DNA from: an uncultured Clostridia bacterium
GTDB lineage: Bacteria; Bacillota; Clostridia; Christensenellales; CAG-917
Length of the DNA: 64,000 nt
NCBI GenBank assembly: GCA_934233745.1
Contig: CAKQGN010000001.1
Location: 322,621-386,620 of the forward strand
Direction of reading: 5' to 3'
The translations under genes were made by a program, and so were the position numbers. How positions within the stretch are numbered: position 1 is the stretch's first letter; every line of letters starts with the position of its first letter. Positions 9,378 to 30,101 of this stretch are shown here, in pieces. Below the pieces are notes generated by a model. It was not told the DNA's origin. It searched no databases and saw only the letters and a list, made by a program, of their open reading frames with translations.

Positions 9378-9397
9378 TAAAGTGTGGAATATGAAAG

Positions 9398-15186: not shown

Positions 15187-15261
15187 AGAAAAGACGTATA
15201 AGCTCTTATAAATAGCGAAGTATAAAGCAGAAAAAGAACAAGAGATAAAGGAGGAAGGATT

Positions 15262-15810: not shown

Positions 15811-15826
15811 AAAGGAGGAGAACGAT

Positions 15827-16351
15827 ATGAAAAACAATAACCCTCGTATAGTGTTGTTAAACGGGGCGGTGGATGAAGAATCCGCAATGAAAGTTATTTT
15901 GCAGTTGCTCGAGCTTAACAGACAGGATGAAAACAAAGAGATAAGTCTGTATATCAATTCAAACGGCGGTAGCATAGTTTACGGATTGGCAATCTACGAT
16001 ACGATAAAACTCATCAAAGCGCCTGTTTCGACCGTTTGTTGCGGTATGGCGGCATCTATGGGGGCGTTCTTGCTTTCGTGCGGAGAGAGGGGGAAAAGAT
16101 ATGCTTTGCCGCATAGCAGAATACTCATTCATCAACCCCTCATGCAGATAAGACAAGGAGTGTCTCGCCCTCAAACCGCTATGCAACGTATAGCGGAAGA
16201 TATGGCGAAATCCCGAAAGGAGTTGGAGTCCGTTATGGCAGACAATACGGGTAAATCTCTCGAAACGCTGCATGCGGATTGCGAGAGGGATAAATGGATG
16301 AGTGCAAAAGAAGCCTTAGAATATGGAATTATAGATAAAATATTGGAATAA
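15827..16351 (+). CDS. clpP: ClpP-family serine protease (triad intact, N-terminally short)
   Basis: GMAASMGAFLL (Ser), RILIHQP (His) and CERDKWMSA (Asp). I prefer ATG 15827 with RBS AAAGGAGGAG over the track start 15788, which lies inside the upstream gene. The protein begins at RIVLLNG, so it lacks the canonical N-terminal ~20 aa. Confidence 0.85.
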   Translation: MKNNNPRIVLLNGAVDEESAMKVILQLLELNRQDENKEISLYINSNGGSIVYGLAIYDTIKLIKAPVSTVCCGMAASMGAFLLSCGERGKRYALPHSRILIHQPLMQIRQGVSRPQTAMQRIAEDMAKSRKELESVMADNTGKSLETLHADCERDKWMSAKEALEYGIIDKILE

Positions 16352-16428
16352 TCTACGGTTATTGATAAAAAGCCAAGGTTAGACATACGAAATTTAAAAA
16401 ATAACAAAAGAAAAAGGAGACAATTGAT

Positions 16429-19053
16429 ATGTTGGGAGCAGTTTCTTGGAATTTGATAGGCGGAGCGTTTACCGGCTTTATAACGTTAATAGTTTTTTAT
16501 GTCGGTATTATGTGGGCGTATATTGCATCGAGAAAAAAGTTTTCGGGTGCAAAGTATGCTGTCGAGCTGTTTTATATTGCGTTGGTGGTTTTGTTTGGCT
16601 TCGGCGTAAAATGCGCTATTTTTGTGGCAAACAGACCCGACACGTTCGATGACGGACTTGCCGCATTCTTCTATGCCATTTATTCGAGTATCGGCGGGCT
16701 CGAGTTCGAAGGCCTGGCGGACGCGGGTGAGGTTGGTACGGCATTGTTACAATGGCTGTATTCGGGAAGTTCGGTGCTTGCCGGACTTGTGTTCTTCAGC
16801 ATCATCCTTACAAAAATCAGCTACGAGATGTACAGCGGAATTTTGCTGTTTTTCTTGCGTATGAGGTTAAAGACAAGCGTGAATACCGACATCTATTTAT
16901 TTACGTCCGTCACGCAGGATTCGTTGCTTTTGGCAAACAGCATCAACGAGAAGAGACTCGGTGATAAGAATAATTACAAAAAAGCACTAAAGGCATATAA
17001 AGAGGACAAAGGAAACGGTAAAGTCGCTCAAAAACCCGAGAAAGCCAGAAATAGTAAGGTGATTTTTGCCGGCGACGATATCGGATCTTTCGATCGTAAA
17101 AATCCGCTGCATAGAGAAATTATGTCCAACGGGTATATGTTTTGGTCTTACTCAAAGAAAACGGGCGGTAATGGACCGTCTATGCTCAAAAGGCTTGGAT
17201 TGTATATCGACAATGTGTTTTTTGAAATAGAATCGCCAAAAGACAAGCAAAAGCAAAACGAGCAAGAGAAAAAAGACAGAGAAAACAAAAAAATCGTTGT
17301 AAAAGCCAAGGCAAAAAATAGCAGGATACATGTTTTTGCAATGCACAACGACGAGGCTTTCAGTGGCGAAGAGACTGTGAATGCAGAAACCGTTTTTGAC
17401 GAAATCGAGACTGTCGTGCGAGAAATCGTGGAGTATAATAAGAAACCTGTTTTCGTCGATTACTACATACTTACGAACACTGATATAAACTACACGTATT
17501 ACGACAATTACAAAAAGAAGTGCATAGAAAGTGCCTTAGAATCCGCAAAAACGAGGACTCACCGTAAAAATAATGTGAAAGATCCTGTTCTTGTAAATGA
17601 CGTAATCGAAGTGCGCAACGAAAGGGGAAGGGTTTGCGAAAGTGAGTTCGCTTTGCATATTATCAACGAGTCCGATATAACGTCAAAACTGTTTGTGGAG
17701 GCTAGAAATAAGGATTGGGATGCGAATTTATTGATTCAGGATACGGGCGAATCGACTTACAAAGTTATGGTTGTCGGCTTTGGTGCGACGGGACAACGGA
17801 CTATGTTGCAATCCTATATCATGTCGACGAAAATAGACAATAAACAACCCGATTATCACATGCCTACGCAATTCAGAGCCGACGTATTCGATAAGGACGC
17901 AGACTCTGTGTGTGGGATTTTTGAATTGCAACATCCTCTTATCGTCTGTGTTAACGATAAGGATGCAAAGGACAATCCTGATAAACTCGAAACACAAATT
18001 GAAAAGAAACGCAGAGAAAGAATCGATATGACATATCATAGCGTAGTCGGCAAGACAATGAATCTTTCTTCGGATTTCAAAAAAGATCGCGCGGCGACAA
18101 TCGAGGACATCGAAAATCAAATGAAATTGCCTGTGGTTGTTATGCACAATGCGTCGTGTTTCGGCTCGGATTATCTCGATTATTTGGATTCGAGAACAGG
18201 CGCAGATTCGCGCTCGCAGGAATATAACCTTATAATAGTTGCTCTCGGGAAAGACGAGGATAATATCAAGATGGCGAATGCTTTGCTTGCGGATATCAAG
18301 CACGAACTCAACAATCTGCGCAATGCAACGAGACCTGCAAAACTGCAAACAATTGCAATCAATTTACTTAACAAGAGAAACCGCGATAGAATCAACTGGA
18401 GCAAAGAGGATAACGAAAGATATGGAAATTTGAAAGTGATTATCTTCGGAAGTAGGGATGATATTTACTCGTATAGACAAATTATAGACGAAACAGAGTG
18501 CATGGAATATCATCACGCATATTATCTTCTCGATACCAACAAAATACCAAACCAAAGCAAACCAATGAAATCATATTATCTTAACAGAGAAACACCGTAC
18601 GTGGGGTGGGGATATTTTGAGTTGTTGTGTGGCTTTTACGATGCTGTAAGATGTGAAGATAAAGAGAATTTAAGATTGGAATGGAAAGACGTTCCGCTTG
18701 TGGAAAGAGAATCGAACAGATCTGCATTGTTATTTAAGAATGTTATGGCGGCGATGAAGTCGTTCTATTGTACGAGTTATTCTTATAGCGAGTTGCGCTT
18801 GTTGGTAGAACTCGAACATGATAGATGGAATAGGTCGTATATCGCCAACGGCTGGACTTATAATCAAAAAATGCCGAAAAAACAAGAAGATGAGTCCGAT
18901 GAAGCTTTTAAAAAACGTCGCAAGAAAGCAAAGAATGACGGTAAAGATAGATGTGAACACGATTGCCTGTTGCCGTATTCTATGTTGGAAGAAAAGTACA
19001 CGGATTATGATATAGCGAATGTCGCCTGTGTGTTTGAAAAAAAGCAACACTAA
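16429..19053 (+). CDS. Membrane protein: channel-like N-terminal TM/pore-loop region + TrkA-N/RCK-like Rossmann domain(s) + C-terminal RyR domain
   Basis: The first ~150 aa contain 3-4 TM helices with a pore-loop-like segment, FFYAIYSSIGGLEFEG, between them. Rossmann signature: YKVMVVGFGATGQRTM...RADVFDKD...LIIVALGKDEDNIKMAN. C-terminal RyR-domain signature: LVELEHDRWNRSYIANGWTY...CEHDCLLPYSMLEEKYTDYDIANV. RBS AAGGAG. Confidence 0.7.
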   Translation: MLGAVSWNLIGGAFTGFITLIVFYVGIMWAYIASRKKFSGAKYAVELFYIALVVLFGFGVKCAIFVANRPDTFDDGLAAFFYAIYSSIGGLEFEGLADAGEVGTALLQWLYSGSSVLAGLVFFSIILTKISYEMYSGILLFFLRMRLKTSVNTDIYLFTSVTQDSLLLANSINEKRLGDKNNYKKALKAYKEDKGNGKVAQKPEKARNSKVIFAGDDIGSFDRKNPLHREIMSNGYMFWSYSKKTGGNGPSMLKRLGLYIDNVFFEIESPKDKQKQNEQEKKDRENKKIVVKAKAKNSRIHVFAMHNDEAFSGEETVNAETVFDEIETVVREIVEYNKKPVFVDYYILTNTDINYTYYDNYKKKCIESALESAKTRTHRKNNVKDPVLVNDVIEVRNERGRVCESEFALHIINESDITSKLFVEARNKDWDANLLIQDTGESTYKVMVVGFGATGQRTMLQSYIMSTKIDNKQPDYHMPTQFRADVFDKDADSVCGIFELQHPLIVCVNDKDAKDNPDKLETQIEKKRRERIDMTYHSVVGKTMNLSSDFKKDRAATIEDIENQMKLPVVVMHNASCFGSDYLDYLDSRTGADSRSQEYNLIIVALGKDEDNIKMANALLADIKHELNNLRNATRPAKLQTIAINLLNKRNRDRINWSKEDNERYGNLKVIIFGSRDDIYSYRQIIDETECMEYHHAYYLLDTNKIPNQSKPMKSYYLNRETPYVGWGYFELLCGFYDAVRCEDKENLRLEWKDVPLVERESNRSALLFKNVMAAMKSFYCTSYSYSELRLLVELEHDRWNRSYIANGWTYNQKMPKKQEDESDEAFKKRRKKAKNDGKDRCEHDCLLPYSMLEEKYTDYDIANVACVFEKKQH

Positions 19054-19068
19054 TGTGAGAGGTGCAAA

Positions 19069-20154
19069 ATGAACGAGAGGCTGTTGATAAGAACGCTCAG
19101 AAAAATTATGAAAACAAAATCACTCAATCTCGAAAGCGTGTCGGCAATCGGAAGTTGCTCGTATGCGGAGGCTTTCGATGTTATGCGATATTTGCTTGAA
19201 AAAGGCATTATCAAAGAAAGCAATGACGGGGAGTTTGCCGTTACGGAAGATAATGAACAAATCGAAGAGTTGCGCAGAGCGAACGGGGACTGGAAAAAAG
19301 AGTTCTCCAACAGCGAACTTAAAAGCATCCTGTATGAAATAGATATGCAAGCGTTTAACATCATCAGAATGTTGGAAGATCTCGATGGGAAGACCATTGA
19401 GGAACTTCGCACCGCATCAAAAGACGCCGCAATCGACGTGGATGCCACGCTTGCATATCTGCAATCGCGAGGGCTGGTTGTGCCGGACGGAGATACGTAT
19501 CGGGGCATAATAGGCGAAGAGAACTACATCAAAATGGTGAATATGTTCAAAAAAGACAAAGCCGAAATGCAACGGAAGATCGATGCGGAAGGCGAACGTC
19601 AGGCAAAGGCTGCTACGGCAAGAAAAGCCGAGGAAGATGAAAAGGAAAGGGAACTTTCCGAAATTATTGCCAATGCGAGAGCGTTGCAAGCGGAAGAGCA
19701 GAAAAAGGAAGAATCTGCCGATGAAACGCCATTGGCGGAAGATACCGAAGTGAGCGCAATTATGTCGCAAGTCGATAGGTTTAGGAAAAAACTCGGTCAA
19801 AAAGAAGAGAATGTTGCGGAGATACCGGTGTGGTTGAATTCAATCCACACCACCGTAATGGTGAAAGCGGATTTGTCGGATACACCGATTGCGGTTTTGC
19901 AAAAAATATATTTGCATTACAACAAAAGAGGCATTGTTAAAAAGTTTGGTGAAAACAACTCGCTTTGCAGTTTTAACGGGAACGTGGCGGCGTTGGATAA
20001 AAAGAAAAGCGTGTTCCAACTTGTGTTTAAGAATGAACTTGTTACGCTCAACTGGGATTTGCCGATAAAAGAGCAGATCAGCGCAAAGCACAGCAGGACG
20101 ATTGGTGAAGATGGCGAACTTGCAGTGTTTGTTTTTGTAGCAATGCAAAATTGA
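19069..20154 (+). CDS. Hypothetical protein with N-terminal winged-helix-like repeats, central charged coiled coil and unknown C-terminal domain
   Basis: 361 aa, starting 15 nt after the preceding stop, RBS GAGAGG. Two wHTH-like segments: YAEAFDVMRYLLEKGIIKESNDGEFAV and AIDVDATLAYLQSRGLVVPDGDTY. I recognised no catalytic motif. Confidence 0.5.
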   Translation: MNERLLIRTLRKIMKTKSLNLESVSAIGSCSYAEAFDVMRYLLEKGIIKESNDGEFAVTEDNEQIEELRRANGDWKKEFSNSELKSILYEIDMQAFNIIRMLEDLDGKTIEELRTASKDAAIDVDATLAYLQSRGLVVPDGDTYRGIIGEENYIKMVNMFKKDKAEMQRKIDAEGERQAKAATARKAEEDEKERELSEIIANARALQAEEQKKEESADETPLAEDTEVSAIMSQVDRFRKKLGQKEENVAEIPVWLNSIHTTVMVKADLSDTPIAVLQKIYLHYNKRGIVKKFGENNSLCSFNGNVAALDKKKSVFQLVFKNELVTLNWDLPIKEQISAKHSRTIGEDGELAVFVFVAMQN

Positions 20155-20306
20155 GAAAAGGCTCATTATAAGTCACAAAACAAAAGTTACAGCTAGTTAT
20201 GTGCAAACAAATTAGAGACTAAAAATGTTGGCGATCATTTTTGAGTTGCGATAATGGCAATATTTTTATACGAAAATAACGTTCACAGTATATCGGGTGT
20301 TATGGC

Positions 20307-20335
20307 TTGCAATATGTACCGAAATATAGTAGAAT
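20307..20335 (+). promoter_or_regulatory. Sigma-70-type promoter (TTGCAA-17 nt-TAGAAT) for the PHP/TIR-NACHT/MBL operon
   Basis: TTGCAA at 20307-20312, 17-nt spacer, TAGAAT at 20330-20335. This leaves a ~70-nt leader before ATG 20413. Confidence 0.45.
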
Positions 20336-20412
20336 ATAACCATTGTTTACGAGAGATGGAAAGTCTCTGCCTGCTCGGGAGAAACGGCACTCGTTTACGG
20401 GGGGGGGGAAGC

Positions 20413-21306
20413 ATGATTGATTTGCATATGCACTCTGTTAATTCAGATGGAACATGCACAACAGAAGAACTTTTACAGCAGTTGGTAGAACTCAATGCTG
20501 AAATAATTTCCTTTACAGACCATGACAGCGTGGGCTGCTATTTTGATTTGAACGATATTTATATTAAACATAATATTCCAATAAAAATTGTACATGGAGT
20601 CGAGTTGAGTTTTTTAGAAGATGGTGTTTTAAGGGATATGTTAGGTTATGGCATCGATGTAAAAATAATAATTAATTGGCTTAATACACGATATTCTAAG
20701 GAGTACAGAATAGCGAAGCAACGAAAGATATTAACAAAATTCAAGGAAATATGTAGAAATAAAGGGATGAAGTTTTCGAACGATCTTGATATTTGCACCG
20801 GAAATAAAAGCGAAGCATTTGTTGTCATGTATAACGAACTAATTAATTATCCCACAAATCGTGAGGCTTTTCCATTTATTACAAACAACACAGCCTTTTA
20901 TTGGCAATACTTTGCAAATAAGTCTAGCGAATACTATGTTGATGAAACGGATGGACTACCTACAATGAAAGATGTTATTGACATAATACATAAATCGGGA
21001 GGTTATGCATTTTTGGCACATCCTTGTGCTTACAAATTAAATAGAACAGAAGTATCTGCGTTTATAGATATTGCCATAAAAAATGGTATAAATGGAATTG
21101 AAGTAAAACACTCATCAAATAAAGATGACGATGTTCCTTTCCTAAGACAAATCGCAGAAATTAACAATCTGTATATTAGTGGGGGCAGTGATTTTCATGG
21201 TTCAACAAAACCAGGATTAAATCTTATCGTTGGGTACAATAATATGTTAGTAACAAAGGATGATATTGGAAACTGGATAAATAGTGTGGAGTCAACCATA
21301 TTTTGA
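20413..21306 (+). CDS. PHP-domain (polymerase/histidinol-phosphatase family) metal-dependent phosphoesterase
   Basis: MIDLHMHSVNSDGTCTTEELL...ISFTDHDSV...HGVELS...AHP...GGSDFHG are the PHP His/Asp motifs. I prefer ATG 20413 (G-rich RBS GGGGGGGGAAGC) to the track start 20254, which overlaps the predicted promoter. Confidence 0.75.
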   Translation: MIDLHMHSVNSDGTCTTEELLQQLVELNAEIISFTDHDSVGCYFDLNDIYIKHNIPIKIVHGVELSFLEDGVLRDMLGYGIDVKIIINWLNTRYSKEYRIAKQRKILTKFKEICRNKGMKFSNDLDICTGNKSEAFVVMYNELINYPTNREAFPFITNNTAFYWQYFANKSSEYYVDETDGLPTMKDVIDIIHKSGGYAFLAHPCAYKLNRTEVSAFIDIAIKNGINGIEVKHSSNKDDDVPFLRQIAEINNLYISGGSDFHGSTKPGLNLIVGYNNMLVTKDDIGNWINSVESTIF

Positions 21307-21314
21307 GGTGAGAT

Positions 21315-24095
21315 ATGAATATTTTTATTAGCTATGGACACGACGGCTTTTCCTCTCTTGCTGAAAGGTTAAAGCATGATTTAGATAGTATGGGTCATAA
21401 CGTTTGGTTTGACAAAGAAAAGCTGAAAGGCTCGGCGGAATGGGAAACTGAAATTGAAAAAAATATTATTTCATCCGATTGGTTAATACTTTTGATGACT
21501 AATCATTCGGTAAGACGTCCCGATGGAGTTTGTTTGGATGAGGTAAGTGTGGCTAGATATATGAACAAAAAGATTTTGCCTATAATGATTCAGAATGTGA
21601 TGCCGCCGTTTTGTATTGCAAGAATTCAATGGCTTGATATGCAGAACAATTGCTGTGATGAAAATGGAGTAATTAATGAACTTAAATATGCCGAGAAACT
21701 GGAACAAATCCTTCAAATAGTTGAGGGTATATTTCAAATAAATCACGAGGGTAGCCAATCCAATTTATTGAGATCTCTTTCTCCGCTGGATAATGATGTT
21801 TACATTGAAAGTATTAAACAAAAATTTTATGGAAGGAATTGGCTGTTTGATAAATATGACAATTGGGTGACATCACACTCATCGCCGAGAGCCTTTATGA
21901 TTACAGGACAAGCTGGAATTGGAAAAACCGCATTCGTTGTGGCGCTTAGTTCAATGCGTCCAGAAATAGTAGGGATACATTTTTGCAAATATAATGATAA
22001 TGATAGATCTAACCCCAAAAGGGCTCTTATGTCGATAGCATATCATTTATCGACTCAAATACCAGAGTATTCTGCACAATTAATGTTATTAAACGATCTA
22101 AACAGATTGGAAGAAAAAAGCGTTACAAGATTATTTGAATATTTATTTATAGAACCACTAAACAAGATACCGTCTAGAGACAAAACATCAGTAATTATTA
22201 TTGATGCATTAGATGAGGCTGCAAAAGAGACCAAAAATGAATTGCTCGATATTATTGCAATGGAGTTTGATAAAACACCAAGTTGGCTAAAATTGTTGGT
22301 CACAAGCAGACCAGAAAATCAGATTTTGCGGAAAATGGCTAAGTATAATCCGATTGTTATTGAAAAGAACAAGGAATGCGATGACGATATCTTGGAATTT
22401 TTAACGAAAGAACTGGTTGATGTAAACTGTTTAGACAAAGAACAAAAAATATTTGAACTTTCAAAAAAGTGCCAAGGCAGCTTTTTATATGCAAAAGAAG
22501 TCATGCGTAATATAAAAGATAAACATTATGATTTATCAAATGTGGATAGTTTTCCAAAAGGGTTGGCGGGCATATATGAGTCATATTTTAATAGGCTATT
22601 TTCAGGTGATATGCAGTTTTATAAAACTATGATAAGGCCCGTTCTTGAAGTGTTAGTGGCTAGTTTTGAGCCCTTAACATTGGAGTTGGTTCAAAAAATA
22701 TCAATGGTTGATGAATATGAATTTGACGATGTAATTGAAGCCATTAGTTCCTTATTTCCATTGAGAAACAACACAGCGACGGCGATGCATAAGAGTTTAT
22801 ATGACTGGATAATTGATGCCGAAAAGGCAGGTCAATATAGGGTATCTCTGAAACGCGGACATAAAAAACTGTCGGATTACTATTTTCAAATGAATAAGAA
22901 CGAGAAATTAACATCTCAAGTAATAAAATACACAACGATGCACTGCATTTTTGCCGAAGAGTATAATTTTGCCTATGAGTTATTAATAAACAATTCATTC
23001 CAAAATACTCGAATTAAATCTCTTGGATTGGATACTGCGCTAAGGGAGTATTTTTCAGAGATATATAAGCTAAAAGAAAAAGAGCCTACGTTGTGTTTAA
23101 ATGTATTGCGTAGTGAATGTTTTTTGTCAATTATCAAAAATAATCGAGCATTTCTATATAATTCCGGATTATTTTTCGAAATAAAAGAATGTGGCTTTGA
23201 TCAAGTTGCAGAAACCATTATTTCAAATTATTCGGATGCTGAATTGATAGTATCAATTGCTTACTACTTCTATATTACCGAAAGGTTTAAGCAAGCGGAA
23301 TTATTGTTTTCTAGGCTAATTGATTTTCAATTTTCCACATTTCCAGAACGACTTAAAGCAGGCGTTTTTAATACTCTTGCTTTATGCAATAGAAAGTATG
23401 CGGATTTTGACAAAGCAAAGGATTATTTTTTGCTTGCAGAGAGTACTGCCGTCCACTCATCTGATTATGAAAGGTCAATTGCTGTTGTAAATTTAGGGAA
23501 AATCGCATATCATCAACTTGATTGGGAGTTGGCTAAAGAATATAGCGAAAAAGCTATTAAAATACTGCGACGCGAATACGACAATTGCGAATTAGATGAT
23601 GATGTTAATTCGTTGAGATTATTTGTTGCGGAATATCATCGATTATTTGCTGAAGCAGTAATTTGGCATGGAGATGTGGAATTGGCTAAAAAACACCTTT
23701 CTGAAGCAGCAAAACTGTACTCAATTAACAAAGCCCGAGACAGATACTATGTGCGATATCTTTATACTGGAATATTGGTCGATATTATTGGCAAACGAAA
23801 TATTGATCTTCGTCGTATTGATGAGGTGAAATCCTTAGCATCCAGCAAATACGACAAGTCGCAAATTTTATACTATGAAGGGCTTTACTTTTACTTAAAA
23901 GATGATGTTGTTGGAAGTAAAGAAAAGTTGCGAGAGGCATTGGTTTATACTGAAGATATAAATGCATCCCTTGAGGTCGGAGAAATAACAATGTTGCTCG
24001 ATTTGTGCGGAGAACACATTAAAACAAACAATAACAATCGTTATATAGAAAAATGGTGCAAATATGTAAAGAACTTTATTGAGGAATTAAAATGA
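21315..24095 (+). CDS. TIR - NACHT/STAND NTPase - TPR-like sensor protein (bacterial NLR-like / Avs-like)
   Basis: N-terminal TIR: MNIFISYGHDGFSSLAERL...VWFDKEKLKGSAEWETEI...LILLMTNHSVRRPDGVCLDEVSVA. P-loop: FMITGQAGIGKTAFVVAL. Walker B: VIIIDALDEA. The C-terminal ~400 aa are helical-repeat/TPR-like. Confidence 0.85.
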   Translation: MNIFISYGHDGFSSLAERLKHDLDSMGHNVWFDKEKLKGSAEWETEIEKNIISSDWLILLMTNHSVRRPDGVCLDEVSVARYMNKKILPIMIQNVMPPFCIARIQWLDMQNNCCDENGVINELKYAEKLEQILQIVEGIFQINHEGSQSNLLRSLSPLDNDVYIESIKQKFYGRNWLFDKYDNWVTSHSSPRAFMITGQAGIGKTAFVVALSSMRPEIVGIHFCKYNDNDRSNPKRALMSIAYHLSTQIPEYSAQLMLLNDLNRLEEKSVTRLFEYLFIEPLNKIPSRDKTSVIIIDALDEAAKETKNELLDIIAMEFDKTPSWLKLLVTSRPENQILRKMAKYNPIVIEKNKECDDDILEFLTKELVDVNCLDKEQKIFELSKKCQGSFLYAKEVMRNIKDKHYDLSNVDSFPKGLAGIYESYFNRLFSGDMQFYKTMIRPVLEVLVASFEPLTLELVQKISMVDEYEFDDVIEAISSLFPLRNNTATAMHKSLYDWIIDAEKAGQYRVSLKRGHKKLSDYYFQMNKNEKLTSQVIKYTTMHCIFAEEYNFAYELLINNSFQNTRIKSLGLDTALREYFSEIYKLKEKEPTLCLNVLRSECFLSIIKNNRAFLYNSGLFFEIKECGFDQVAETIISNYSDAELIVSIAYYFYITERFKQAELLFSRLIDFQFSTFPERLKAGVFNTLALCNRKYADFDKAKDYFLLAESTAVHSSDYERSIAVVNLGKIAYHQLDWELAKEYSEKAIKILRREYDNCELDDDVNSLRLFVAEYHRLFAEAVIWHGDVELAKKHLSEAAKLYSINKARDRYYVRYLYTGILVDIIGKRNIDLRRIDEVKSLASSKYDKSQILYYEGLYFYLKDDVVGSKEKLREALVYTEDINASLEVGEITMLLDLCGEHIKTNNNNRYIEKWCKYVKNFIEELK

Positions 24096-24847
24096 AAATA
24101 CATGTATTAGGTTCTGGTGGGTGGATGCCAGGTAATAATAGAGAAACTTCTTGTCTGCTTATTGAATATAAGGGAAAGTTGCTAATGATTGATGCAGGTA
24201 CTGGCGTTGCGAATCTGTCAGGGTATGGTGATGTTCTCGACAGATATAATGAAATACACATATTGTTAAGTCATTACCATCTTGATCATATTATAGGACT
24301 AACTTATATCAGCAAGTTTTTTGGGAGTAAAAAAATATGTATATACGGACCTCAATATGGTGTATTTTCTAATGTAAAAAAGGAGTTAAGTAAATTATTC
24401 ATCCCAAGCTTTCACTCTAGAAGTTTGAAAGATTTAGGGGAAAGTGTGCTTTTTTTTGAGTATACTGCAATACCATTTATGATTGATGATATTCTCGTTG
24501 AAACCAGAGAGCTAAACCACTCTAGTATAACTTATGCTTTTTTTATTGATAAGATATTCGCATATATTAGCGATACTTTATTTTTGAAAAAAATAATAGA
24601 GGAAACGGCTAATTTTAAATGGGTATTTCATGAATGTTGGGGAATCGAAAAAACAAATGCTGCACATTCCTATCTGCAAGAACTTAAAGAAAAACTGTAT
24701 TGCACTTGCAAGTATTATCTAATTCACCTTAACCCAGATATACCATATTGCGAATATAAAGCGGCTATAAAAGGATTTGACAATGTATATGTTGGTCAAG
24801 ATTTTGATATGGTGTTGATTAATAATATACTCGGCTTAATGGAATGA
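24092..24847 (+). CDS. Metallo-beta-lactamase-fold hydrolase (RNase Z / phosphodiesterase-like)
   Basis: LLIDAGTG...ILLSHYHLDHIIGL carries the HxHxDH motif. The start overlaps the TIR-NACHT stop (ATGA). Confidence 0.8.
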   Translation: MKIHVLGSGGWMPGNNRETSCLLIEYKGKLLMIDAGTGVANLSGYGDVLDRYNEIHILLSHYHLDHIIGLTYISKFFGSKKICIYGPQYGVFSNVKKELSKLFIPSFHSRSLKDLGESVLFFEYTAIPFMIDDILVETRELNHSSITYAFFIDKIFAYISDTLFLKKIIEETANFKWVFHECWGIEKTNAAHSYLQELKEKLYCTCKYYLIHLNPDIPYCEYKAAIKGFDNVYVGQDFDMVLINNILGLME

Positions 24848-24983
24848 GTTGAGCCTATACCTCCTTTTTTAGTATTTTTTTGCAAGGACGGAAAAGGAAG
24901 TAAAGACGAAGATTTGGCTTTCACGGACTTGGTTGCTACATGTGCTTTACCTCTTTTTCTCGACCTTGCGATTTTATTCATAA

Positions 24984-25830
24984 CACAGGTGAATCGGCGT
25001 TGTACACAGACTCCATCCGGACACTTTTGGATATGAGTAGGACAGTTTCAAGACTCAGCCGTACTTTGCCAAGATTAACCCGTACTCTATCAAGACTCAG
25101 TTGTACTCGCTACACCTTTACATGTTGTGAACAATACACATCGTAAACATAGACGAATGAACAAATAAGAACATCGTTGTGCGCAATTTGGACAAGTTTG
25201 AAATCGTGACCGAACACCGTTCGAGCCCTGTTGTGATATGAACTACCGACAGCGTATCATTGCCGACGTATTTTGCACAAATGGGTGCAAGTTTAGTTTC
25301 AATGGTTTTCGTTCGGTTTTGCGGGACAACTCTCGGGAGCGAGAATGGCTACGCAATGGCTTTTGTGTGTTATGAACAGTTTTTAAGTTAGCACAGAATC
25401 GTTTTTGAGCGTGAGTACATAAAATCCAACTTTAGGGGAAATTTTTGTGAAAAAGCGAATGTTGAGTGGGAATTTGAATGGGAAAACGCATATTAAGGTA
25501 AACTCGAGCGGGAATCCCGATGCCGAAAAGATAAAAGCAGAATTCGCCGGTTGATATAAAAAAAAGAAAAAATCCGCCTATGAAAAAGAGGACAAAAAAT
25601 CACATTGCCGATGTGCGAGAAAAACGGGCCCGATTCGCCAAGCGGTTTAGCGCGAACGGCCCGTTCCGCACGGCTGCGATTTTGCCTTTTTAGGCGGTTT
25701 GTTTTTATACAAGGCGTATGCTTGTCTCGGCGAGGCGCATCGGGGTTCCCCGCAAAACGGAGCGCAGCGACGTTTTGTGGGGTGAAAGGCTCGCCGACTT
25801 GTTCAAAGACAAGTATACGCCTAAGTGCCA
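24984..25830 (-). repeat. Diverged inverted copy of the R scaffold module (element terminus)
   Basis: The reverse complement of 24984-25215 aligns with 49560-49786, including the GTAC-N6-AGTCTTG iterons and the terminal TGTACAACGCC(A/G)ATTCA block. 25640-25710 aligns in reverse complement with 49315-49385 (ATAAAAACAAACC ... CGCGCTAA(A/C)CCGCTTGGCGAA). The middle section is only weakly similar. Confidence 0.55.
25712..25822. repeat. Long imperfect nested hairpin at the cargo-proximal side of inverted R copy
   Basis: Outer arms AGGCGTATGCTTGTCT (25712-25727) and AGACAAGTATACGCCT (25807-25822). Nested arms TCGGCGAGGC / GGCTCGCCGA and CCCCGCAAAACG (25748-25759) / CGTTTTGTGGGG (25771-25782). Confidence 0.6.
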
Positions 25831-25940
25831 AAAAGAATTTTTGCGCAACACACGAGAGGTAAAATATTAAAACTTTGACAATGTCCCGCAGATGGTACGT
25901 TCGATTGGATAAGATAAAAAAAATTATACAGGAGATTGTC

Positions 25941-26774
25941 ATGGGGTTTGAAACGATTATTGATTTGGAACGAATTGCAAGAAATAATGTCAAAAAAATG
26001 TTGCCTTGCGATACAAGATGGGACGGTATGATTGAGAAAGAGATCATACGGATAACAGAACTTGATATGGCAAAATATTTTTGCATTGTAAGAAGGATAA
26101 GAGAGTTTTTGAAAGAGAAGGATAAAAGCACTCGGTTTTTCGGGAACGGGGGTTGCAGTTTAGTTGCGTATCTGCTTGGGATAACCGATATAAACCCGTA
26201 TGAACATGGTTTGATATTTGAAAGATATTTTAATGAAAAGTACAATATGCAATGTTTATTTGGTTTTTACATGGACGAGGATACGCTTGACGAGTTGGCG
26301 GAATATCTCAAAAAAGACTTTGAGTTTGTGGAAATCGAGATTGGGGAAAGAGAAAACATTTTGCATATCGACAAAGTTGAGATACCGATAATAACGTCTG
26401 CCGTAACGATGAAAGAAGTTGAAGGTTGGATGTTTGATAGATTTCGCTATTTGGGAACTACGCCGTATACCGAAGATTATATGCATTTCATTCATTATAT
26501 TGCGGGGTATAGTTATGACGAAGTCGAAAAAATACGGCGTACTATATGTAGCTTCAAAAAGAATGAAATAGACGCACTAGAAGCACAGTTCATCATGCGT
26601 TGTCCTCAATGGATTGCTTGTGCCGAAAGGTTTGCGCTTTTTTACAAAATTGCGCGAAGAATGCGCATGTCGATAAGTAAGGCGTATTGCGTGTCGGCGT
26701 TAAAAGTGCTTGGATGCAAAGAAATCGATTGCGATGAGATGCCGTTTGGCGGTGAGTACGATGACGAAAAGTAA
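25941..26774 (+). CDS. Small DnaE (Pol III alpha)-like fragment protein lacking recognisable catalytic palm residues
   Basis: FGNGGCSLVAYLLGITDINPYEHGLIFERYFN resembles DnaE GRGSAAGSLVAYxLGITDxDPxxYxLLFERFLN. The following PDFDIDF catalytic block is replaced by LFGFYMDED. A later segment, GYSYDEVEKIRRTICSFKKNE, resembles DnaE ...ADxLRRAMGKKK. I prefer ATG 25941 with RBS AGGAG over the TTG at 25875. Confidence 0.5.
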   Translation: MGFETIIDLERIARNNVKKMLPCDTRWDGMIEKEIIRITELDMAKYFCIVRRIREFLKEKDKSTRFFGNGGCSLVAYLLGITDINPYEHGLIFERYFNEKYNMQCLFGFYMDEDTLDELAEYLKKDFEFVEIEIGERENILHIDKVEIPIITSAVTMKEVEGWMFDRFRYLGTTPYTEDYMHFIHYIAGYSYDEVEKIRRTICSFKKNEIDALEAQFIMRCPQWIACAERFALFYKIARRMRMSISKAYCVSALKVLGCKEIDCDEMPFGGEYDDEK

Positions 26775-26864
26775 TATGCGAAGAATTGTTTGCACTGTAT
26801 ACGGTACATTGTGTATTTACATTTCGATAAATCGGGGGTATGATATATGAAAGGAGATTTGCTT

Positions 26865-27851
26865 ATGGGATTTGAAAATAAACAAACTTTGCTTTTCAGA
26901 TTGTATCAAGTGCTTTTTGATTATTCGGACGAAAACAATTTGCTTACGCAACAGGACATCATCGATATTCTTGAAAGGGAATACGGCTTGGCGGTGGAGC
27001 GCAAGGCAATCGGGCGCAATATATCCTATCTCAACGAGATGGGAATTGACGTGGATACAAGCCGCAAGGGTGCGTATCTCGTGGATAGACCGATTGAAAA
27101 ATCCGAACTGCACATGCTCATAGACAGTGTGCTTTGCTCGACGCATATAAGTGCGACTCATTCCAAACAACTTATCGACAAACTCGTAAGAATGGGCGGT
27201 CGCAACTTCAAATCGCGCGTTAGATACGTGCAATCGCTCAACGATTGGAACAAAACCGAAAACAAGGCGGTGTTTTTCAATATATCGGTGATAGACGATG
27301 CGATAAGTCAAGGCAAACAGATAAAATTCTACTACAATAAAATCGGCGCGGACAAGCAACTGCACCACACGTCGCACCCGTGCGTAAGCCCGTATAGAAT
27401 GGTGCTGCACAATCAGCACTACTATCTTATGGGATGCAACCACAAGTGGATGAACATAAGCTTCTACCGCCTTGACAAAATCACGGGAATCGAAATAATC
27501 GACCAGCCGATTGTGCCTATCAAGAGCCTCGACGGATACAAAAACGGCATAAATTATAAGGAATTGTCCACCGCACGCCCATATATGTTTACAGATAAAC
27601 CCGAAAAGGTTGTTATTTCAGCGAAAAAATGGATGATGGACGACATCGTGGATTGGTTTGGCAAAGACGTAAAAGTGTCAACAATCGATGACGAAAACAT
27701 AAAAGTCGAACTGATTGTCAGCCCGACGGCGATGAAGTTTTGGGCATTGCAATACGGAGAAAACGCCGAAGTGCTTGCGCCTAAGCATTTGCGCAACGAA
27801 ATAAGACAAAGCATAGAGCAAATGTGTGAAAAATACAAAAGGGGATGTTAA
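26865..27851 (+). CDS. HTH-WYL-domain transcriptional regulator (BrxR/CapW-like)
   Basis: N-terminal wHTH: LLTQQDIIDILEREYGLAVERKAIGRNISYLNEMGIDV. WYL core: IKFYYNK...HPCVSPYRMVLHNQHYYLMGC...ISFYRLDKITGIEIID. There is also a C-terminal WCX-like domain. ATG 26865 follows AAAGGAG; ATG 26847 is an alternative start. Confidence 0.8.
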   Translation: MGFENKQTLLFRLYQVLFDYSDENNLLTQQDIIDILEREYGLAVERKAIGRNISYLNEMGIDVDTSRKGAYLVDRPIEKSELHMLIDSVLCSTHISATHSKQLIDKLVRMGGRNFKSRVRYVQSLNDWNKTENKAVFFNISVIDDAISQGKQIKFYYNKIGADKQLHHTSHPCVSPYRMVLHNQHYYLMGCNHKWMNISFYRLDKITGIEIIDQPIVPIKSLDGYKNGINYKELSTARPYMFTDKPEKVVISAKKWMMDDIVDWFGKDVKVSTIDDENIKVELIVSPTAMKFWALQYGENAEVLAPKHLRNEIRQSIEQMCEKYKRGC

Positions 27852-27852
27852 A

Positions 27853-28602
27853 GTGGAAAAACATAACAAAACCGAAAAAAATGAAATTTTTGATTTGATA
27901 ATCACGCTTACAAAAGGAATACAAAATAAAGATAATGCTGTAAAGTGCAAGTACCGTAACGACGATTACAAACTAAACGCTTGTACGTATTTGTTGGGGC
28001 AAGTTTTAAGACAGTACAGCAAAAACGGAGGACGTATTTACGTTTCGGAGAAAGCAGCCGAAAAATGGGAACTTTTAAGTGGTCATGACATGAATGACTA
28101 TTGGTATAGGAATACGGTTAGATGCGACGGCGAAGCGTTCAAAAACAGCGAAGAGGTGGAAGAGTATTTGTACAAAGGTAATTCAAATACGCCTGAGAAA
28201 GTATGTTTTAAGAAAGGGAATAAATTTTCATTTCGCGAAATTTTCCATGACGAACATATAATTCCGATTGCAAGCATAATTGAAGATTTGACAAACCTTA
28301 AAGGTGATGACTTGAACTACGACAACGTAGAAAAGGTGCTTGCCAATCTATGCCTTTGCCGAATATTAAAGTCGGAAGATCGTAGCATTAAAAGCAGATA
28401 TGCAAGACCAAAATGCTTGATAAAGGCGTATGAAGAAGTATATCAAAAAGTGAATGGCAAACCTATAAATCTAATAGGTTGGGACAAAATCGAAGAAGAA
28501 TATAGAAAAGAACATGGTTGTGACTGCGGTTGCGATAAGTGTAGTTTGAAAGGCACATTTAGACGCTCAAGGAAATCTAAAAACACTCAAGATAAGGAGT
28601 AA
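27853..28602 (+). CDS. HNH / DUF1524-like His-Me-finger nuclease candidate with C-terminal Cys cluster
   Basis: EIFHDEHIIPIASII...NLCLCRILKSEDRSIK is an HNH-like D-E-H...N...N pattern. The C-terminus reads GCDCGCDKC. GTG 27853 lies directly after the WYL stop with RBS AAAAGGGGA. The track start is ATG 27826, in the same frame. Confidence 0.5.
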   Translation: MEKHNKTEKNEIFDLIITLTKGIQNKDNAVKCKYRNDDYKLNACTYLLGQVLRQYSKNGGRIYVSEKAAEKWELLSGHDMNDYWYRNTVRCDGEAFKNSEEVEEYLYKGNSNTPEKVCFKKGNKFSFREIFHDEHIIPIASIIEDLTNLKGDDLNYDNVEKVLANLCLCRILKSEDRSIKSRYARPKCLIKAYEEVYQKVNGKPINLIGWDKIEEEYRKEHGCDCGCDKCSLKGTFRRSRKSKNTQDKE

Positions 28603-28604
28603 TT

Positions 28605-30101
28605 ATGTATTTCAGCAAATCAAGATATTGCTCTTTGTGTCAATGCCCAAAGAGTGTGTGGCTCAAAAAGTTTAAGCCCGATGAATATGAAATTGACGAA
28701 AGCGTCAAGGCAAGAATGGACAACGGCAACGTCGTTGGCGATTTTGCCATGGGGCTGTTTGGCGATTACGTTGAAGTGACCGCAACAAAAGAAAACGGCG
28801 CGCTCGACTTGTCCAAAATGATTGCAAAAACCAAGGAGTGCATTGCAAACGGAGTGCAGAACATTTGCGAAGCATCCTTTGATTTTTGCGGTTTGTATTG
28901 CGCCGTGGACATTTTGCGCAAGGACGGTGACGGCTATTCCATCTACGAAGTCAAGAGCGCAACCGACATAAAAGCGGTGTACATCTATGACGTGAGTTAT
29001 CAAAAATACGTGCTTGAAAAATGCGGTGTCAACGTCAAACATACATATCTCGTGTACATCAACAACGAGTACGTCAGAGGCAAAGAGCTTGACATCAAGC
29101 AAGTGTTCAAGGTGCGCAATGTTGACGAGCTGGTGGCACAGGAATACGGCAACGTTGAAGGGCTTTTGCAAGGCGCGGAAGAATTGCTTGCCGATGAGCA
29201 AGAGCCCCGAATCGACATTTCAATCAACTGTTTTGCACCCTACAAGTGCGGATTTTGGAAATATTGCTCGCAGCATCTTCCCAAACCGAGCGTGTTTGAT
29301 ATGTATCGTTTGCCAAAGCCGAAAGCCTTTGAATGTTATGAGCAAGGCGTTGTTTCGTTTGAAGATTACGCGCGCACGGGGTGGTATTTTTCCGACAAAA
29401 TCGACAAGCAAGTTGACTTCTATTTGCATGATCGCGGAGTGTATACGGACAAGGACGGCATCAAGCAGTTTCTTGCCACGCTCTCTTATCCGCTGTACTT
29501 TTTGGACTTTGAAACAATGCAACCCATCATTCCGCCGTTTGAGGGCGTGCGACCGTATCAGCAAATCCCGTTTCAATATTCCTTGCATTATATCGAGAGT
29601 GAAGGCGGTGCGCTCAAACACAAAGAGTTCTTGGCAGTGTCCGGCGAAAATCCGCTCCGCGCCATTGCCGAAAGCCTTGTGCGAGATATCCCCATGAACG
29701 TATGCACGCTTGCCTACAACAAGGCGTTTGAGTGCTCGCGCATAAAGGAGCTTGCCGATATGTTTCCGGACTTGCGCGCACATCTTCTCAACATAAGGGA
29801 CAACATCAAAGATTTGCTCGACGTGTTTAGGGGCGGATACTATTATCGCAAGGAAATCGGCGGCTCGTTCTCGATCAAATCGGTGCTGCCTGCAATGTTC
29901 CCAAATGATTCCGAACTCGATTATCACAATCTTGACGGCGTGCACAACGGCGGTGAAGCAATGAGCATATTCCCGGCAATCAAAGATATGCCGCCCAAAG
30001 AGCAAGCAATCGCGCGCCACAACCTGCTGAAATATTGCGAACTTGACACCTACGCCATGGTGAAAATCTGGCAAGCCCTCTGCGACCTAGTCAAAGATTG
30101 A
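28605..30101 (+). CDS. DUF2779-type protein: Cas4/RecB-like PD-(D/E)XK nuclease with Cys cluster + DnaQ-like exonuclease-fold C-terminal domain
   Basis: N-terminal Cys residues in CSLCQC. PD-(D/E)XK-like segment: CAVDILRKDGDGYSIYEVKSAT. Further Cys residues in NCFAPYKCGFWKYC. C-terminal segment YPLYFLDFETMQPIIPPFEGVRPYQQIPFQYSLH has a DFET acidic motif. RBS AAGGAG. Confidence 0.7.
   Translation: MYFSKSRYCSLCQCPKSVWLKKFKPDEYEIDESVKARMDNGNVVGDFAMGLFGDYVEVTATKENGALDLSKMIAKTKECIANGVQNICEASFDFCGLYCAVDILRKDGDGYSIYEVKSATDIKAVYIYDVSYQKYVLEKCGVNVKHTYLVYINNEYVRGKELDIKQVFKVRNVDELVAQEYGNVEGLLQGAEELLADEQEPRIDISINCFAPYKCGFWKYCSQHLPKPSVFDMYRLPKPKAFECYEQGVVSFEDYARTGWYFSDKIDKQVDFYLHDRGVYTDKDGIKQFLATLSYPLYFLDFETMQPIIPPFEGVRPYQQIPFQYSLHYIESEGGALKHKEFLAVSGENPLRAIAESLVRDIPMNVCTLAYNKAFECSRIKELADMFPDLRAHLLNIRDNIKDLLDVFRGGYYYRKEIGGSFSIKSVLPAMFPNDSELDYHNLDGVHNGGEAMSIFPAIKDMPPKEQAIARHNLLKYCELDTYAMVKIWQALCDLVKD

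Follow-up and report, generated by a model that had tools for sequence, protein, structure and literature searches.

Bacterial STAND proteins that carry a TIR domain have been treated as self-contained sensor-killers that burn NAD+. The closest described relatives of the locus studied here are single-gene TIR-STAND proteins (Avs, bNACHT and the TIR-NLR proteins of P2/P4 hotspots), with which it shares the layout of TIR domain, NACHT-clade NTPase and repeat sensor as well as a defence-island setting. bNACHT genes are reported to occur rarely in operons, and the TIR survey of Yirmiya et al. (2025) set aside Avs-type TIRs as NAD+-depleting effectors. That survey mentions no phosphatase, lactamase-fold or ryanodine receptor (RyR) domain partners, and a 2026 survey of STAND proteins mentions no such esterase partners. 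Here we describe a three-gene cassette from an uncultured Clostridia bacterium, found in a window of 64,000 nucleotides (nt) that spans positions 322,621 to 386,620 of contig CAKQGN010000001.1 (all coordinates below are those of the window unless a locus label is given). A TIR-NACHT protein of the NLR type is encoded there between a PHP-domain phosphoesterase and a metallo-beta-lactamase (MBL) fold phosphodiesterase. Unlike in the single-gene systems, esterase partners are nearly universal in the clade to which this protein belongs, and these adjacent enzymes point to an undescribed nucleotide-processing layer in TIR immunity.

The cassette comprises the following genes (lengths in amino acids, aa):

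20413..21306, + strand: PHP-domain phosphoesterase gene, 297 aa (open reading frame (ORF) listing, Pfam)
21315..24095, + strand: TIR-NACHT-helical-repeat (NLR-like) gene, 926 aa
24092..24847, + strand: MBL-fold phosphodiesterase gene, 251 aa

An initial annotation of this DNA had described three tightly spaced genes on the + strand, separated by an 8-nt gap and an ATGA overlap, and the junction sequences agree: the PHP/NLR junction reads TGA-ggtgagat-ATG, and at the NLR/MBL junction, AAATGA, the start codon of the MBL gene overlaps the stop codon of the NLR gene. The three genes are translationally coupled and mobile as one unit.

The central protein (hereafter the NLR) is divided as follows:

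21315..21650, + strand: TIR domain (TIR_2), aa 1-112, with putative catalytic residue E76
21822..22964, + strand: NACHT-clade STAND NTPase (aa ~170-336; NPHP3_N) and helical/winged-helix domains (aa ~439-550; HTH_TANC1)
22992..24092, + strand: C-terminal helical-repeat region, weakly TPR-like (TPR_12 below cutoff), the presumed sensor

This succession of TIR effector, NACHT-clade P-loop NTPase and helical-repeat tail, proposed in the initial annotation, is borne out by Pfam and by invariant motifs. TIR_2 covers aa 3-112 (E = 1e-18, 68.4 bits against a cutoff of 28), and the NACHT-clade NTPase profile NPHP3_N (E = 2e-25, 90.2 bits, cutoff 24.8) and the TANC1-type winged helix HTH_TANC1 (E = 3e-10, 40.3 bits, cutoff 27) are matched well above their thresholds; the NACHT profile itself, PF05729, reaches 22.6 bits, under its cutoff of 26.7, and the Pfam match to AAA_16 is also sub-threshold. 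Across 29 full-length homologs, TIR residues F4, S6, Y7, G8, D33, W43, C73 and E76 are invariant, the last within a C-L-D-E motif. The two nucleotide-binding motifs singled out at the outset hold up equally well: G198, G201, G203 and K204 of the P-loop (Walker A) GQAGIGKT and I296, D297, A298, D300 and E301 of the Walker B motif IIIDALDEA do not vary in the same homologs, nor do H492, K493, S494 and D497 of an H-K-S-x-x-D motif in the winged helix. The NACHT-clade profiles, together with the invariant GxxGxGKT and hhhhDALDE signatures, place the protein among STAND NTPases, and its sequence is consistent with the tripartite order of effector, NTPase and repeat sensor. The tail, initially taken for TPR repeats, is less easily named. 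Its 370 residues appear helical from their composition and are matched by the designed CTPR protein 7obi (E = 0.003), which agrees with helical repeats, but the TPR assignment is weak, TPR_12 being found at E = 5e-4, under the Pfam cutoff.

Full-length homologs of the NLR form more than 80 clusters, with 31-75% identity. In PADLOC-DB v2.0.0, the protein is matched by TIR-domain models only: Aga_TIR (Argonaute-associated TIR), PDC-S66, SAVED_TIR and ThsB1. No STAND-system model of this database (Avs, bNACHT, TIR-NLR) fits it. Similarity to Thoeris-type TIRs is weak, with E = 9e-5 for the PADLOC ThsB1 model and 4e-5 for the NCBIfam model of Thoeris type III ThcB4.

Are these receptors solitary, or do their flanking genes belong with them? 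A neighbourhood survey had been put forward initially as the decisive test. We drew gene contexts from one-genome-per-species GTDB contigs, exact-protein look-ups and JGI metagenomes, scanned all ORFs with local hidden Markov models (HMMs) for each partner family and checked representatives against Pfam. Once near-identical loci were collapsed, 25 informative contexts of full-length homologs were obtained (the JGI scan contributed mostly distant relatives and three or four full-length proteins, and the census is one of 25 contexts, not hundreds). The homologs are not solitary: in 24 of the 25 contexts an esterase gene is tightly linked, on the same strand and at -129 to +16 nt from the NLR gene. 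A phosphomonoesterase occurs in 21 contexts and an MBL enzyme in 14. The partners adopt the PHP, histidine phosphatase (HisPhos; His_Phos_1), HAD (Hydrolase_3), inositol monophosphatase (IMPase; Inositol_P) and MBL folds, in these gene orders (loci are designated by our labels, L001 and so on):

PHP-NLR-MBL: the window, L005, L013, L083/84
HisPhos-NLR-MBL: L001
NLR-MBL with divergent IMPase and HAD_2 genes: L007/L076
NLR-MBL: L006, L079, L097
NLR-HAD: L008-L011, L081/82, L094
NLR-IMPase: L014, L020, L021, L049
MBL-NLR-IMPase: L015, L018/19, L026, L028
NLR-MBL-IMPase: L078
IMPase-NLR: L052

At the sole exception, L099, a RyR-domain protein is encoded upstream, and genes for PUA and HD-phosphohydrolase proteins follow closely on the downstream side. 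The 'obligate' bracketing by PHP and MBL enzymes that was first proposed thus needs rewording: a linked phosphoesterase is near-universal, but its fold varies, PHP being replaced by HisPhos, HAD or IMPase-family enzymes. What is conserved is the enzyme class, a phosphomonoesterase with or without an MBL phosphodiesterase, and not the fold. In a neighbour-joining tree, the type of partner tracks the NLR clade, and partner identity is correlated with NLR identity (Pearson coefficient of 0.88 for MBL and 0.78 for IMPase). Genes resembling small-molecule kinases also take operon positions beside TIR-NACHT genes, namely an APH/choline-kinase family gene downstream of an outgroup NLR in L091-L093 (L091:6904-7929) and a shikimate-kinase-like P-loop kinase gene upstream in two loci of the IMPase clade, L021 (5477-5977) and L052.

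The TIR-NACHT half of the protein is widespread, with 1522 clusters (50% identity) at E <= 1e-30, most of which have other C-termini. We used about 43 TIR-NACHT loci with such other C-termini as a control, and an adjacent esterase of the above families was present in L029 only. Ten annotated tight neighbours of the control genes are unrelated genes or repeat extensions (sigma-54 activator, TctC, tRNA methyltransferase, glycosyltransferase, resolvase, porphobilinogen deaminase, TPR or LRR proteins). Since the controls are nearly devoid of esterases, the linkage is specific to the clade that shares the C-terminal region of the window protein.

The three genes also travel together. L005 carries PHP, NLR and MBL genes whose products are 74%, 75% and 69% identical to those of the window, and blastn of the window against this locus returns a single 4399-nt alignment (78% identity, window positions 20413-24807), outside which the flanks share nothing. 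Homology thus sets in at the ATG of the PHP gene and stops within the MBL gene, from which it follows that the trio is transferred as a single cassette. A longer PHP reading frame, from 20254, was considered and dropped: the PHP homologs are 297-304 aa long and DNA homology with L005 begins exactly at the ATG at 20413, so that this codon is almost certainly the start. The trio recurs in at least four other contexts (L005, L013, L083 and L084); L013 is an Olsenella locus, from a different phylum and with a GC content of 0.59, and in L083/L084 the trio adjoins serine recombinase or restriction-modification genes. PHP, MBL, HAD and IMPase proteins are common housekeeping families, and one might suspect that such enzymes merely happen to lie beside the NLR gene. 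Accidental proximity is effectively excluded, however, by the linkage in 24 of 25 contexts, compared with a single case among about 43 outgroup loci, by reading frames that overlap or nearly so, by a joint horizontal transfer in which homology stops at either end of the cassette, and by the correlated divergence of partner and NLR.

Which reactions might the two flanking enzymes catalyse? Characterised members of the PHP protein's branch (3',5'-bisphosphate (pAp) phosphatase and RNase AM) remove 3'-phosphates from nucleotides. Judged from its sequence, the PHP protein is a divergent member of the TrpH / RNase AM / 3',5'-nucleoside-bisphosphate phosphatase family (COG0613-like), and not an ortholog of these enzymes. 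The Pfam PHP profile is matched at E about 1e-8, and the closest proteins by sequence are RNase AM (Vibrio, E. coli), BAD_1165 and the Chromobacterium 3',5'-nucleotide bisphosphate phosphatase, with matches in the Protein Data Bank (PDB) to 9etk, 3e0f, 7ug9 and 2yb1 at E-values of 1e-14 to 4e-16. The NCBIfam models for RNase RNM (E = 3e-28, 98.8 bits, cutoff 375) and 3',5'-nucleoside bisphosphate phosphatase (E = 1e-26, 93.6 bits, cutoff 400) score far below their cutoffs, which does not amount to equivalog-level orthology to RNase AM or pAp phosphatase; a PhnPP-like model is matched at E = 4e-13. The AlphaFold2 (AF2) model (pLDDT 95.8) is nearest in fold to RNase AM, BAD_1165 and Cv1693 bound to AMP and phosphate (9etk, 3e0f and 2yb1; TM-scores of 0.66-0.72). 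Among 40 homologs, metal ligands H7, D12, H37, E64, H203 and H262 are invariant and H5, H233 and D260 nearly so, which accounts for all nine ligands. PHP proteins linked to NLR genes form a clade with at least 42% identity to the query, while a second block of homologs lies at 34-41%. PADLOC returned nothing for this protein.

The MBL protein is predicted, from its sequence and its model, to be a small phosphodiesterase of the Apyc1 / YhfI / PhnP / short RNase Z branch, whose characterised members (Apyc1, YhfI, PhnP) cleave open the cyclic or diester phosphates of nucleotides and phosphoribose. It matches Lactamase_B (8e-9) and Lactamase_B_2 (1.7e-6) in Pfam. NCBIfam ranks RNase Z first (1.6e-17), followed by PhnP (1.4e-11) and a cyclic-nucleotide-degrading phosphodiesterase (7e-9), all of them below cutoff; the last model, cyc_nuc_deg_phdiest, gives 35.5 bits where 400 are required. 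The Anti-Pycsar_Apyc1 profile PF23023 is listed in precomputed tables for the identical cluster P0121, and our local scan did not report it for the window protein even at E <= 10; the partner MBLs of L018, L026 and L028 score 46-47 bits with this profile against a cutoff of 50. The window MBL lies below the curated score threshold of the Apyc1 family. Its AF2 model (pLDDT 93.3) finds Apyc1 7u2s as top structural match (E = 3e-15, TM-score 0.70), and the nearest folds comprise BA1088, the PhnP-family diphosphatase 6b9v, YhfI, PhnP and RNase Z as well (TM-scores of 0.65-0.76). Residues D34, H61, H63, D65, H66, H143, D161 and H212 are invariant in 41 homologs and include the metal ligands of the HxHxDH motif. 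Both flanking proteins, initially described as a PHP enzyme and an HxHxDH MBL enzyme, therefore have complete metal sites, and with the intact TIR and NTPase motifs of the NLR all three proteins look competent for catalysis. PADLOC gave no match for the MBL protein at E <= 0.01, PHROGs only a generic 'metal-dependent hydrolase', and a BFVD fold search with its model only generic viral MBL proteins.

The initial annotation considered that the two hydrolases could be nucleases or, alternatively, enzymes that make, trim or quench a TIR-derived nucleotide signal. Both enzymes have ribonucleases among their relatives, the 5'-3' exoribonuclease RNase AM for PHP and RNase Z for MBL. With RNase AM among the closest solved relatives of the PHP protein and RNase Z as the top NCBIfam match of the MBL protein, an RNase AM-like PHP and an RNase Z-like or Avs1a/HamM DNase-like MBL could be killing enzymes switched on by the NLR, and MBL nucleases are indeed known partners of STAND and Hachiman systems (PMC12799240; PMC13069673). 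However, the same operon slots are held in other clades by HAD, IMPase-family and histidine phosphatases. The known MBL of Avs1a is a ComEC-like gated proenzyme of about 46 kDa (PMC12799240), whereas the MBL protein here has 251 aa and no PADLOC match, and no protease domain is present. The NLR, moreover, already has an effector of its own, the TIR domain, and we regard nuclease effectors as very improbable. To our knowledge, HAD (Cof-type), IMPase-family and histidine phosphatases are small-molecule or sugar-phosphate enzymes and are not known as nucleases. Since four unrelated phosphomonoesterase folds interchange and three of them are of this small-molecule type, the PHP and MBL proteins of the window can be argued to act on a small phosphorylated molecule too. 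The displacement pattern thus favours the trimming or quenching half of the initial proposal over the nuclease half, and the best reading of the cassette esterases is that they are not nucleases. That the fold is replaced repeatedly while the activity class is kept, in a clade that hardly ever travels without a phosphoesterase, indicates that these receptors depend on hydrolysis of a phosphorylated nucleotide in their working.

We propose that the cassette encodes a TIR sensor of the NLR type and that the two enzymes beside it break down, by hydrolysis, the NAD(P)-derived product of the TIR domain, an interpretation that we prefer while granting it slightly less than an even chance. A phage cue would bind the C-terminal repeats and cause NTP-dependent oligomerisation; the oligomerised TIR domains would cleave NAD(P)+ into ADP-ribose-type products, that is, ADP-ribose (ADPR), cyclic ADPR (cADPR) isomers or 2'-phosphorylated forms. 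The MBL enzyme may then cut a phosphodiester, pyrophosphate or cyclic phosphate of this product and the PHP enzyme may remove the phosphomonoester so exposed, a task that a histidine phosphatase, HAD or IMPase-family enzyme would take over in other clades. The net outcome would be destruction of the TIR product. The combination of an MBL diesterase with a phosphomonoesterase suggests such a two-step breakdown, in which a bond is opened and the phosphate is then removed. As to what this would serve, we favour a role of the esterases in setting a threshold and resetting the system, much as host ring nucleases do in type III CRISPR, although physiological purpose is the least certain step of the model; such a role would matter most where RyR-domain proteins encoded nearby read the product. 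Were the esterases to clear the TIR product, they would constitute the first known host-encoded off-switch for bacterial TIR signalling.

A connection to NAD chemistry is suggested by a four-gene cassette without NLR gene, located by a resolvase gene in L089 (4184-7720) and L090 (42-3578), which encodes PHP, MBL, DUF4062 and IMPase-family proteins. Its MBL protein is 37% identical to that of the window. DUF4062 is reported to be a TIR-like NADase, that of the Swarozyc system (10.64898/2026.05.01.722283). With esterases retained beside this NADase and the NLR absent, the esterases seem tied to NAD chemistry rather than to the sensor. When the L089 cassette was compared to the NLR using hhalign, only a TIR-like stretch was matched, and no similarity to the NLR C-terminus was seen.

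Domains that could read a TIR product are encoded close to several of these genes. RyR-domain genes occur within 6 kb of the NLR gene in 7 of the 25 contexts. They belong to the NLR operon itself in L026 (RyR-MBL-NLR-IMPase, where only a few nt separate the genes) and in L097 (RyR-NLR-MBL). Small RyR proteins are found in L026, L097, L001 and L079. Beside more distant TIR-NACHT genes, RyR forms the C-terminal module of proteins with two transmembrane segments and TrkA_N/RCK domains (L078, L091-93, L032, L117, L119, L079), or is fused to a RelA/SpoT-like domain (L101:2150-4909) or to an AAA/STAND module (L120:1903-4482). According to two preprints of 2026, 2'cADPR, 3'cADPR and cADPR are bound or cleaved by RyR-domain proteins of phages (PMC13232231; 10.64898/2026.06.04.730250). 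A ligand-binding RyR domain fused to varied outputs beside a TIR enzyme is the pattern expected of a signal reader, and hence suggests that these TIR domains make cADPR-type molecules and that bacteria use RyR as a domain for reading TIR products. One may go further and regard this TIR-NACHT family as signal-generating NLRs whose NAD-derived messenger, a cADPR isomer or a phosphorylated relative of one, is read by RyR proteins (channel-like, RelA/SpoT-like or AAA/STAND fusions) and shaped or erased by dedicated esterases and, in some clades, by kinases. This wider scheme is possible, though we consider it doubtful. If true, it would give prokaryotes an equivalent of the animal cADPR-to-ryanodine-receptor axis and would be the first TIR immune pathway with built-in signal-catabolism enzymes. 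The RyR fusions beside TIR-NACHT genes are in any case a lead on the function of bacterial RyR domains, and may bear on the RyR domain of animal ryanodine receptors.

The window itself has a candidate gene of this kind, outside the mobile cassette:

16429..19053, + strand: gene for an 874-aa protein, hydrophobic helices at the N-terminus and RyR-like domain at the C-terminus, a candidate associated gene
19069..20154, + strand: gene for a 361-aa protein, between the 874-aa gene and the cassette

The 874-aa protein scores 97.5 bits with our local RyR HMM and aligns to the TrkA_N-RyR family over aa 750-866 (hhalign probability 89%, E = 2e-6). We do not claim it as a member of that family, the similarity being confined to the C-terminal ~100 aa. 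Its hydrophobic segments lie within aa 5-128, and it has no match in Pfam, NCBIfam or PHROG. The gene, two genes upstream of the cassette, has a GC content of 0.41-0.44, unlike the cassette. The 361-aa protein likewise has no match in Pfam, NCBIfam or PHROG, and shows no similarity to a 600-aa protein encoded at the equivalent position of L078.

Several RyR-containing neighbourhoods hold further genes. In the Bacteroides loci L079/L080 (4001-11063), one strand encodes an NLR homolog, MBL, TIR-STING, a small RyR protein and a TrkA_N/RCK-RyR protein in succession; a TIR-STING effector thus lies beside a TIR-NLR, and no cyclase is found within the 11 kb examined. In L001-L004 (1-5990) and L097 (480-4956), a fusion of about 1390 aa between a protein kinase and a Card1-like endonuclease domain and then a small RyR protein precede the NLR homolog. 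L001 has an extra block, TIR(438 aa)-DUF218-TIR(261 aa)-HisPhos, between the small RyR protein and the NLR homolog.

Several points weigh against the quenching model proposed above. The phosphomonoesterase is the most universal partner (21 of 25 contexts), yet ADPR and cADPR isomers carry no phosphomonoester, so that the model needs a phosphorylated product, obtained either from NADP+ or after the MBL cut; the HAD-only and IMPase-only clades, meanwhile, have no linked diesterase. The minimal cassettes of L005, L013 and L083/84 have no RyR protein or other reader within 5 kb, and quenching would lack an obvious beneficiary there. The esterase link also follows the clade of the C-terminal domain, while relatives with a similar N-terminal half (residues 1 to ~550) are without it, a distribution that would equally fit enzymes acting on the trigger. 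Finally, in two clades (L091; L021, L052) a kinase-like gene is linked instead of, or besides, a phosphatase. The missing phosphomonoester, the absent readers, the C-terminal-clade linkage and the kinase-like genes together keep four rival explanations alive.

The confinement of the esterases to the C-terminal clade is what one would expect if they edited the trigger rather than the product, keeping low the level of a small phosphorylated ligand of the clade-specific C-terminal domain. Firing of the receptor would then require that infection raise this ligand beyond the capacity of the esterases, or that a phage inhibit them. Small-molecule-triggered defence has a precedent in the sensing of m6-dAMP by a PUA-Cal-HAD module (10.64898/2026.01.15.699771). 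But the esterases of L089 are kept with a different NADase, with no detectable resemblance to the NLR C-terminus by hhalign. The C-terminal region is, furthermore, the least conserved part of the NLR, its mean pairwise identity being 30% where the TIR and NACHT regions each reach 48%, as would be expected of a protein-binding sensor and not of a conserved ligand pocket. As the C-terminus is not unusually conserved, it lends no support to a small-molecule pocket, and we judge trigger editing to be quite unlikely.

The kinase-like genes, which occupy operon positions equivalent to those of the esterases (L091; L021, L052), suggest that the phosphorylation state of a small molecule matters. They could be accommodated by a maturation pathway in which a precursor made by the TIR domain is converted by the MBL enzyme, the phosphatase or the kinase into a messenger for RyR-domain or other effectors, and the fusions of RyR with effector-like modules that are encoded beside TIR-NACHT genes are compatible with this. 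On the other hand, four unrelated and interchangeable phosphatase folds fit generic destruction better than the making of a specific product, and most contexts have no reader protein; a maturation pathway seems to us hardly probable.

The absence of readers from cassettes that move on their own between genomes raises yet another question: is the TIR domain of these three-gene units simply the killing effector? This is probably so in the reader-less cassettes, and the esterases might then enhance the effector by making the loss of NAD(P) complete and irreversible. By one route, the phosphatase would turn NADP(H) into NAD(H) and thereby feed the TIR domain; by another, the MBL enzyme and the phosphatase would destroy ADPR or ADPR-pyrophosphate and so block the rebuilding of NAD+ by phage NAD+ reconstitution pathways (NARP1, with Adps and Namat) or by host salvage. 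The same types of esterase flank the DUF4062 NADase, whose reported product is plain ADPR (10.64898/2026.05.01.722283), and NARP1 takes ADPR, which the esterases would destroy, as its input (PMC13232231; PMC12774641). NCBIfam models of NADP phosphatase and of 3'(2'),5'-bisphosphate nucleotidase (IMPase family) weakly match the partners, and PHP and MBL relatives (PhnPP-like, PhnP, 6b9v) act on phosphoribosyl 1,2-cyclic phosphate, a chemistry close to that of ADPR-pyrophosphate. This explanation nevertheless meets difficulties: a host anti-NARP enzyme has no precedent, ADPR offers no phosphomonoester to the most universal partner, a constitutive NADP phosphatase would itself be harmful, and the RyR association is left unexplained. 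We thus rate enhancement of the effector as rather unlikely. If it were true, the esterases would be a counter-measure to phage NARP pathways. Whether they clear a signal, as we prefer, or block NAD+ rebuilding, purified enzymes of the cassette could reveal what these TIR domains make.

We now turn to the surroundings of the cassette. The cassette is more AT-rich than the neighbouring DNA, as originally remarked, with a GC content of 0.334 against 0.417 and 0.409 in the flanks. An element terminus proposed at 24984 could not be substantiated, since no repeat or homology boundary lies at that position: the homology that defines the cassette stops near 24807, still within the 3' part of the MBL gene, whose stop codon is at 24847, and the GC content shifts downstream of the cassette, at about 24.9-25.1 kb. 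The predicted promoter is:

20307..20335, + strand: promoter-like TTGCAA-17-TAGAAT, 78 nt upstream of the PHP start, weak

Both hexamers are present, but they match the consensus at only 9 of 12 positions, the region has no excess of promoter-like sites (31 found against 25 +/- 5.4 in shuffled sequences), and the stretch 20307-20335 is not conserved in the cassette copy of L005, where we looked for it. For these reasons we do not treat the promoter as evidence.

Just 3' of the cassette, positions 25048-25107 contain 3 direct repeats of TCAAGACTCAGCCGTACT with a 21-nt spacing, which might be a protein-binding array or iterons; they lie within a 68-aa ORF of doubtful reality. Further on, a GC-rich intergenic stretch (25590-25830, + strand) separates the MBL gene from a 299-aa ORF that resembles a DnaE fragment (25875-26774). 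It folds with a minimum free energy of -111.6 kcal/mol (z = -7.3 relative to shuffled sequence) into a long hairpin closed by a 16-nt inverted repeat (25712-25727 / 25807-25822). Rfam gave no match in 19800-26000 at gathering thresholds and none at E <= 1 for 24800-25950, and the stretch at 25590-25830 is a candidate for a structured element, RNA or DNA, of an uncharacterised type.

The cassette sits in a defence island. The window also encodes a Ser/Thr kinase, an LRR protein, a 1212-aa TIR-TPR protein, two ClpP-like proteins, a WYL-WCX regulator, a DUF2779/Cas4-like nuclease, a type I restriction-modification system, a UvrD-type helicase and an Eco57I-like enzyme. Megablast of positions 15000-30000 against phage and plasmid collections returned no match, hence no annotated close relative, and a scan of IMG/VR viral contigs with the NLR alignment returned no relative, hence no sign of a phage-borne cassette. 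In the segment 11548-16351, the gene for the TIR-TPR protein (TIR_2 and about 17 TPR_12 repeats, with an NPHP3-type TPR match) is followed by the two adjacent ClpP-like protease genes, and this may be a separate TIR-TPR/ClpP system; a ClpP-like gene is also found near the NLR homolog of L001. The WYL-WCX regulator gene (26847-27851) lies 2 kb downstream of the cassette, and in L078, from Phosphitispora, a WYL-WCX gene (8474-9472) directly follows the IMPase gene. Its recurrence may reflect a regulator common to both loci or simply the chance make-up of defence islands.

How does this cassette compare with multigene systems already described? PADLOC returned no system-level match for it, and we found no description of the PHP/TIR-NACHT/MBL configuration in the literature searched, in line with the initial remark that it was undescribed. 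In AVAST type 1 and in the trypsin-MBL pairs of Hachiman/Lamassu, as here, a STAND sensor is accompanied by a separately encoded MBL-fold partner. However, the AVAST type 1 MBL belongs to a different family, a protease-gated, ComEC-like DNase of about 46 kDa encoded upstream (PMC12799240; PMC13069673), whereas ours is a 251-aa protein of Apyc1/RNase Z type, usually encoded downstream, and phosphatases can replace the partner. The 926-aa protein begins with a TIR domain and has no protease domain, and its MBL partner is not ComEC-like, which sets the cassette apart from AVAST type 1. The Swarozyc system is approached by L089/L090, where the DUF4062 protein is flanked by PHP, MBL and IMPase-family genes. 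The window protein differs in that it combines a canonical TIR_2 domain with an NLR core. Operons with diverse enzymes are noted in the Swarozyc preprint, which makes no mention of phosphatase, PHP or lactamase-fold proteins (10.64898/2026.05.01.722283).

Thoeris resembles the cassette in placing a TIR enzyme in a multigene defence operon, and in several contexts the nearby genes include some for RyR domains, a type of domain that binds Thoeris signals. The cassette TIR is instead fused to an NLR-type NTPase and sensor, and the linked hydrolases have no recognisable killing domain. The 2025 survey lists no type of Thoeris that has esterase partners or RyR effectors. No model of a ThsA-type effector (SLOG, Macro and similar) is matched; the nearest candidate for a signal-reading effector is the RyR-like 874-aa membrane protein encoded two genes upstream, outside the mobile cassette.

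The proposed logic, in which an enzyme of the host or operon destroys its own messenger to provide a threshold and a reset, has parallels elsewhere. Plant NUDT7 acts on TIR products. Ring nucleases of type III CRISPR systems, mentioned in PMC11724313, are host enzymes that clear cyclic oligoadenylate. Enzyme folds and messengers differ from those proposed here, and in the literature searched nothing alike has been reported for bacterial TIR systems. On the phage side, Apyc1 is the nearest relative of the MBL partner in fold (7u2s, 7u2r, 7t28), and relatives of the MBL protein carry PF23023 matches, but sequence identity to Apyc1 is only ~19-21%; bacterial Apyc1 homologs have been described as housekeeping regulators of cyclic nucleotide monophosphates (cNMPs), not as TIR partners. 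The small RyR proteins found in the same operons recall phage RyDEP and RyR Tad, a cADPR-isomer glycosidase or sponge. In contrast to these phage proteins, the genes of the cassette are host-encoded, lie in a defence cassette and are coupled to a sensor gene.

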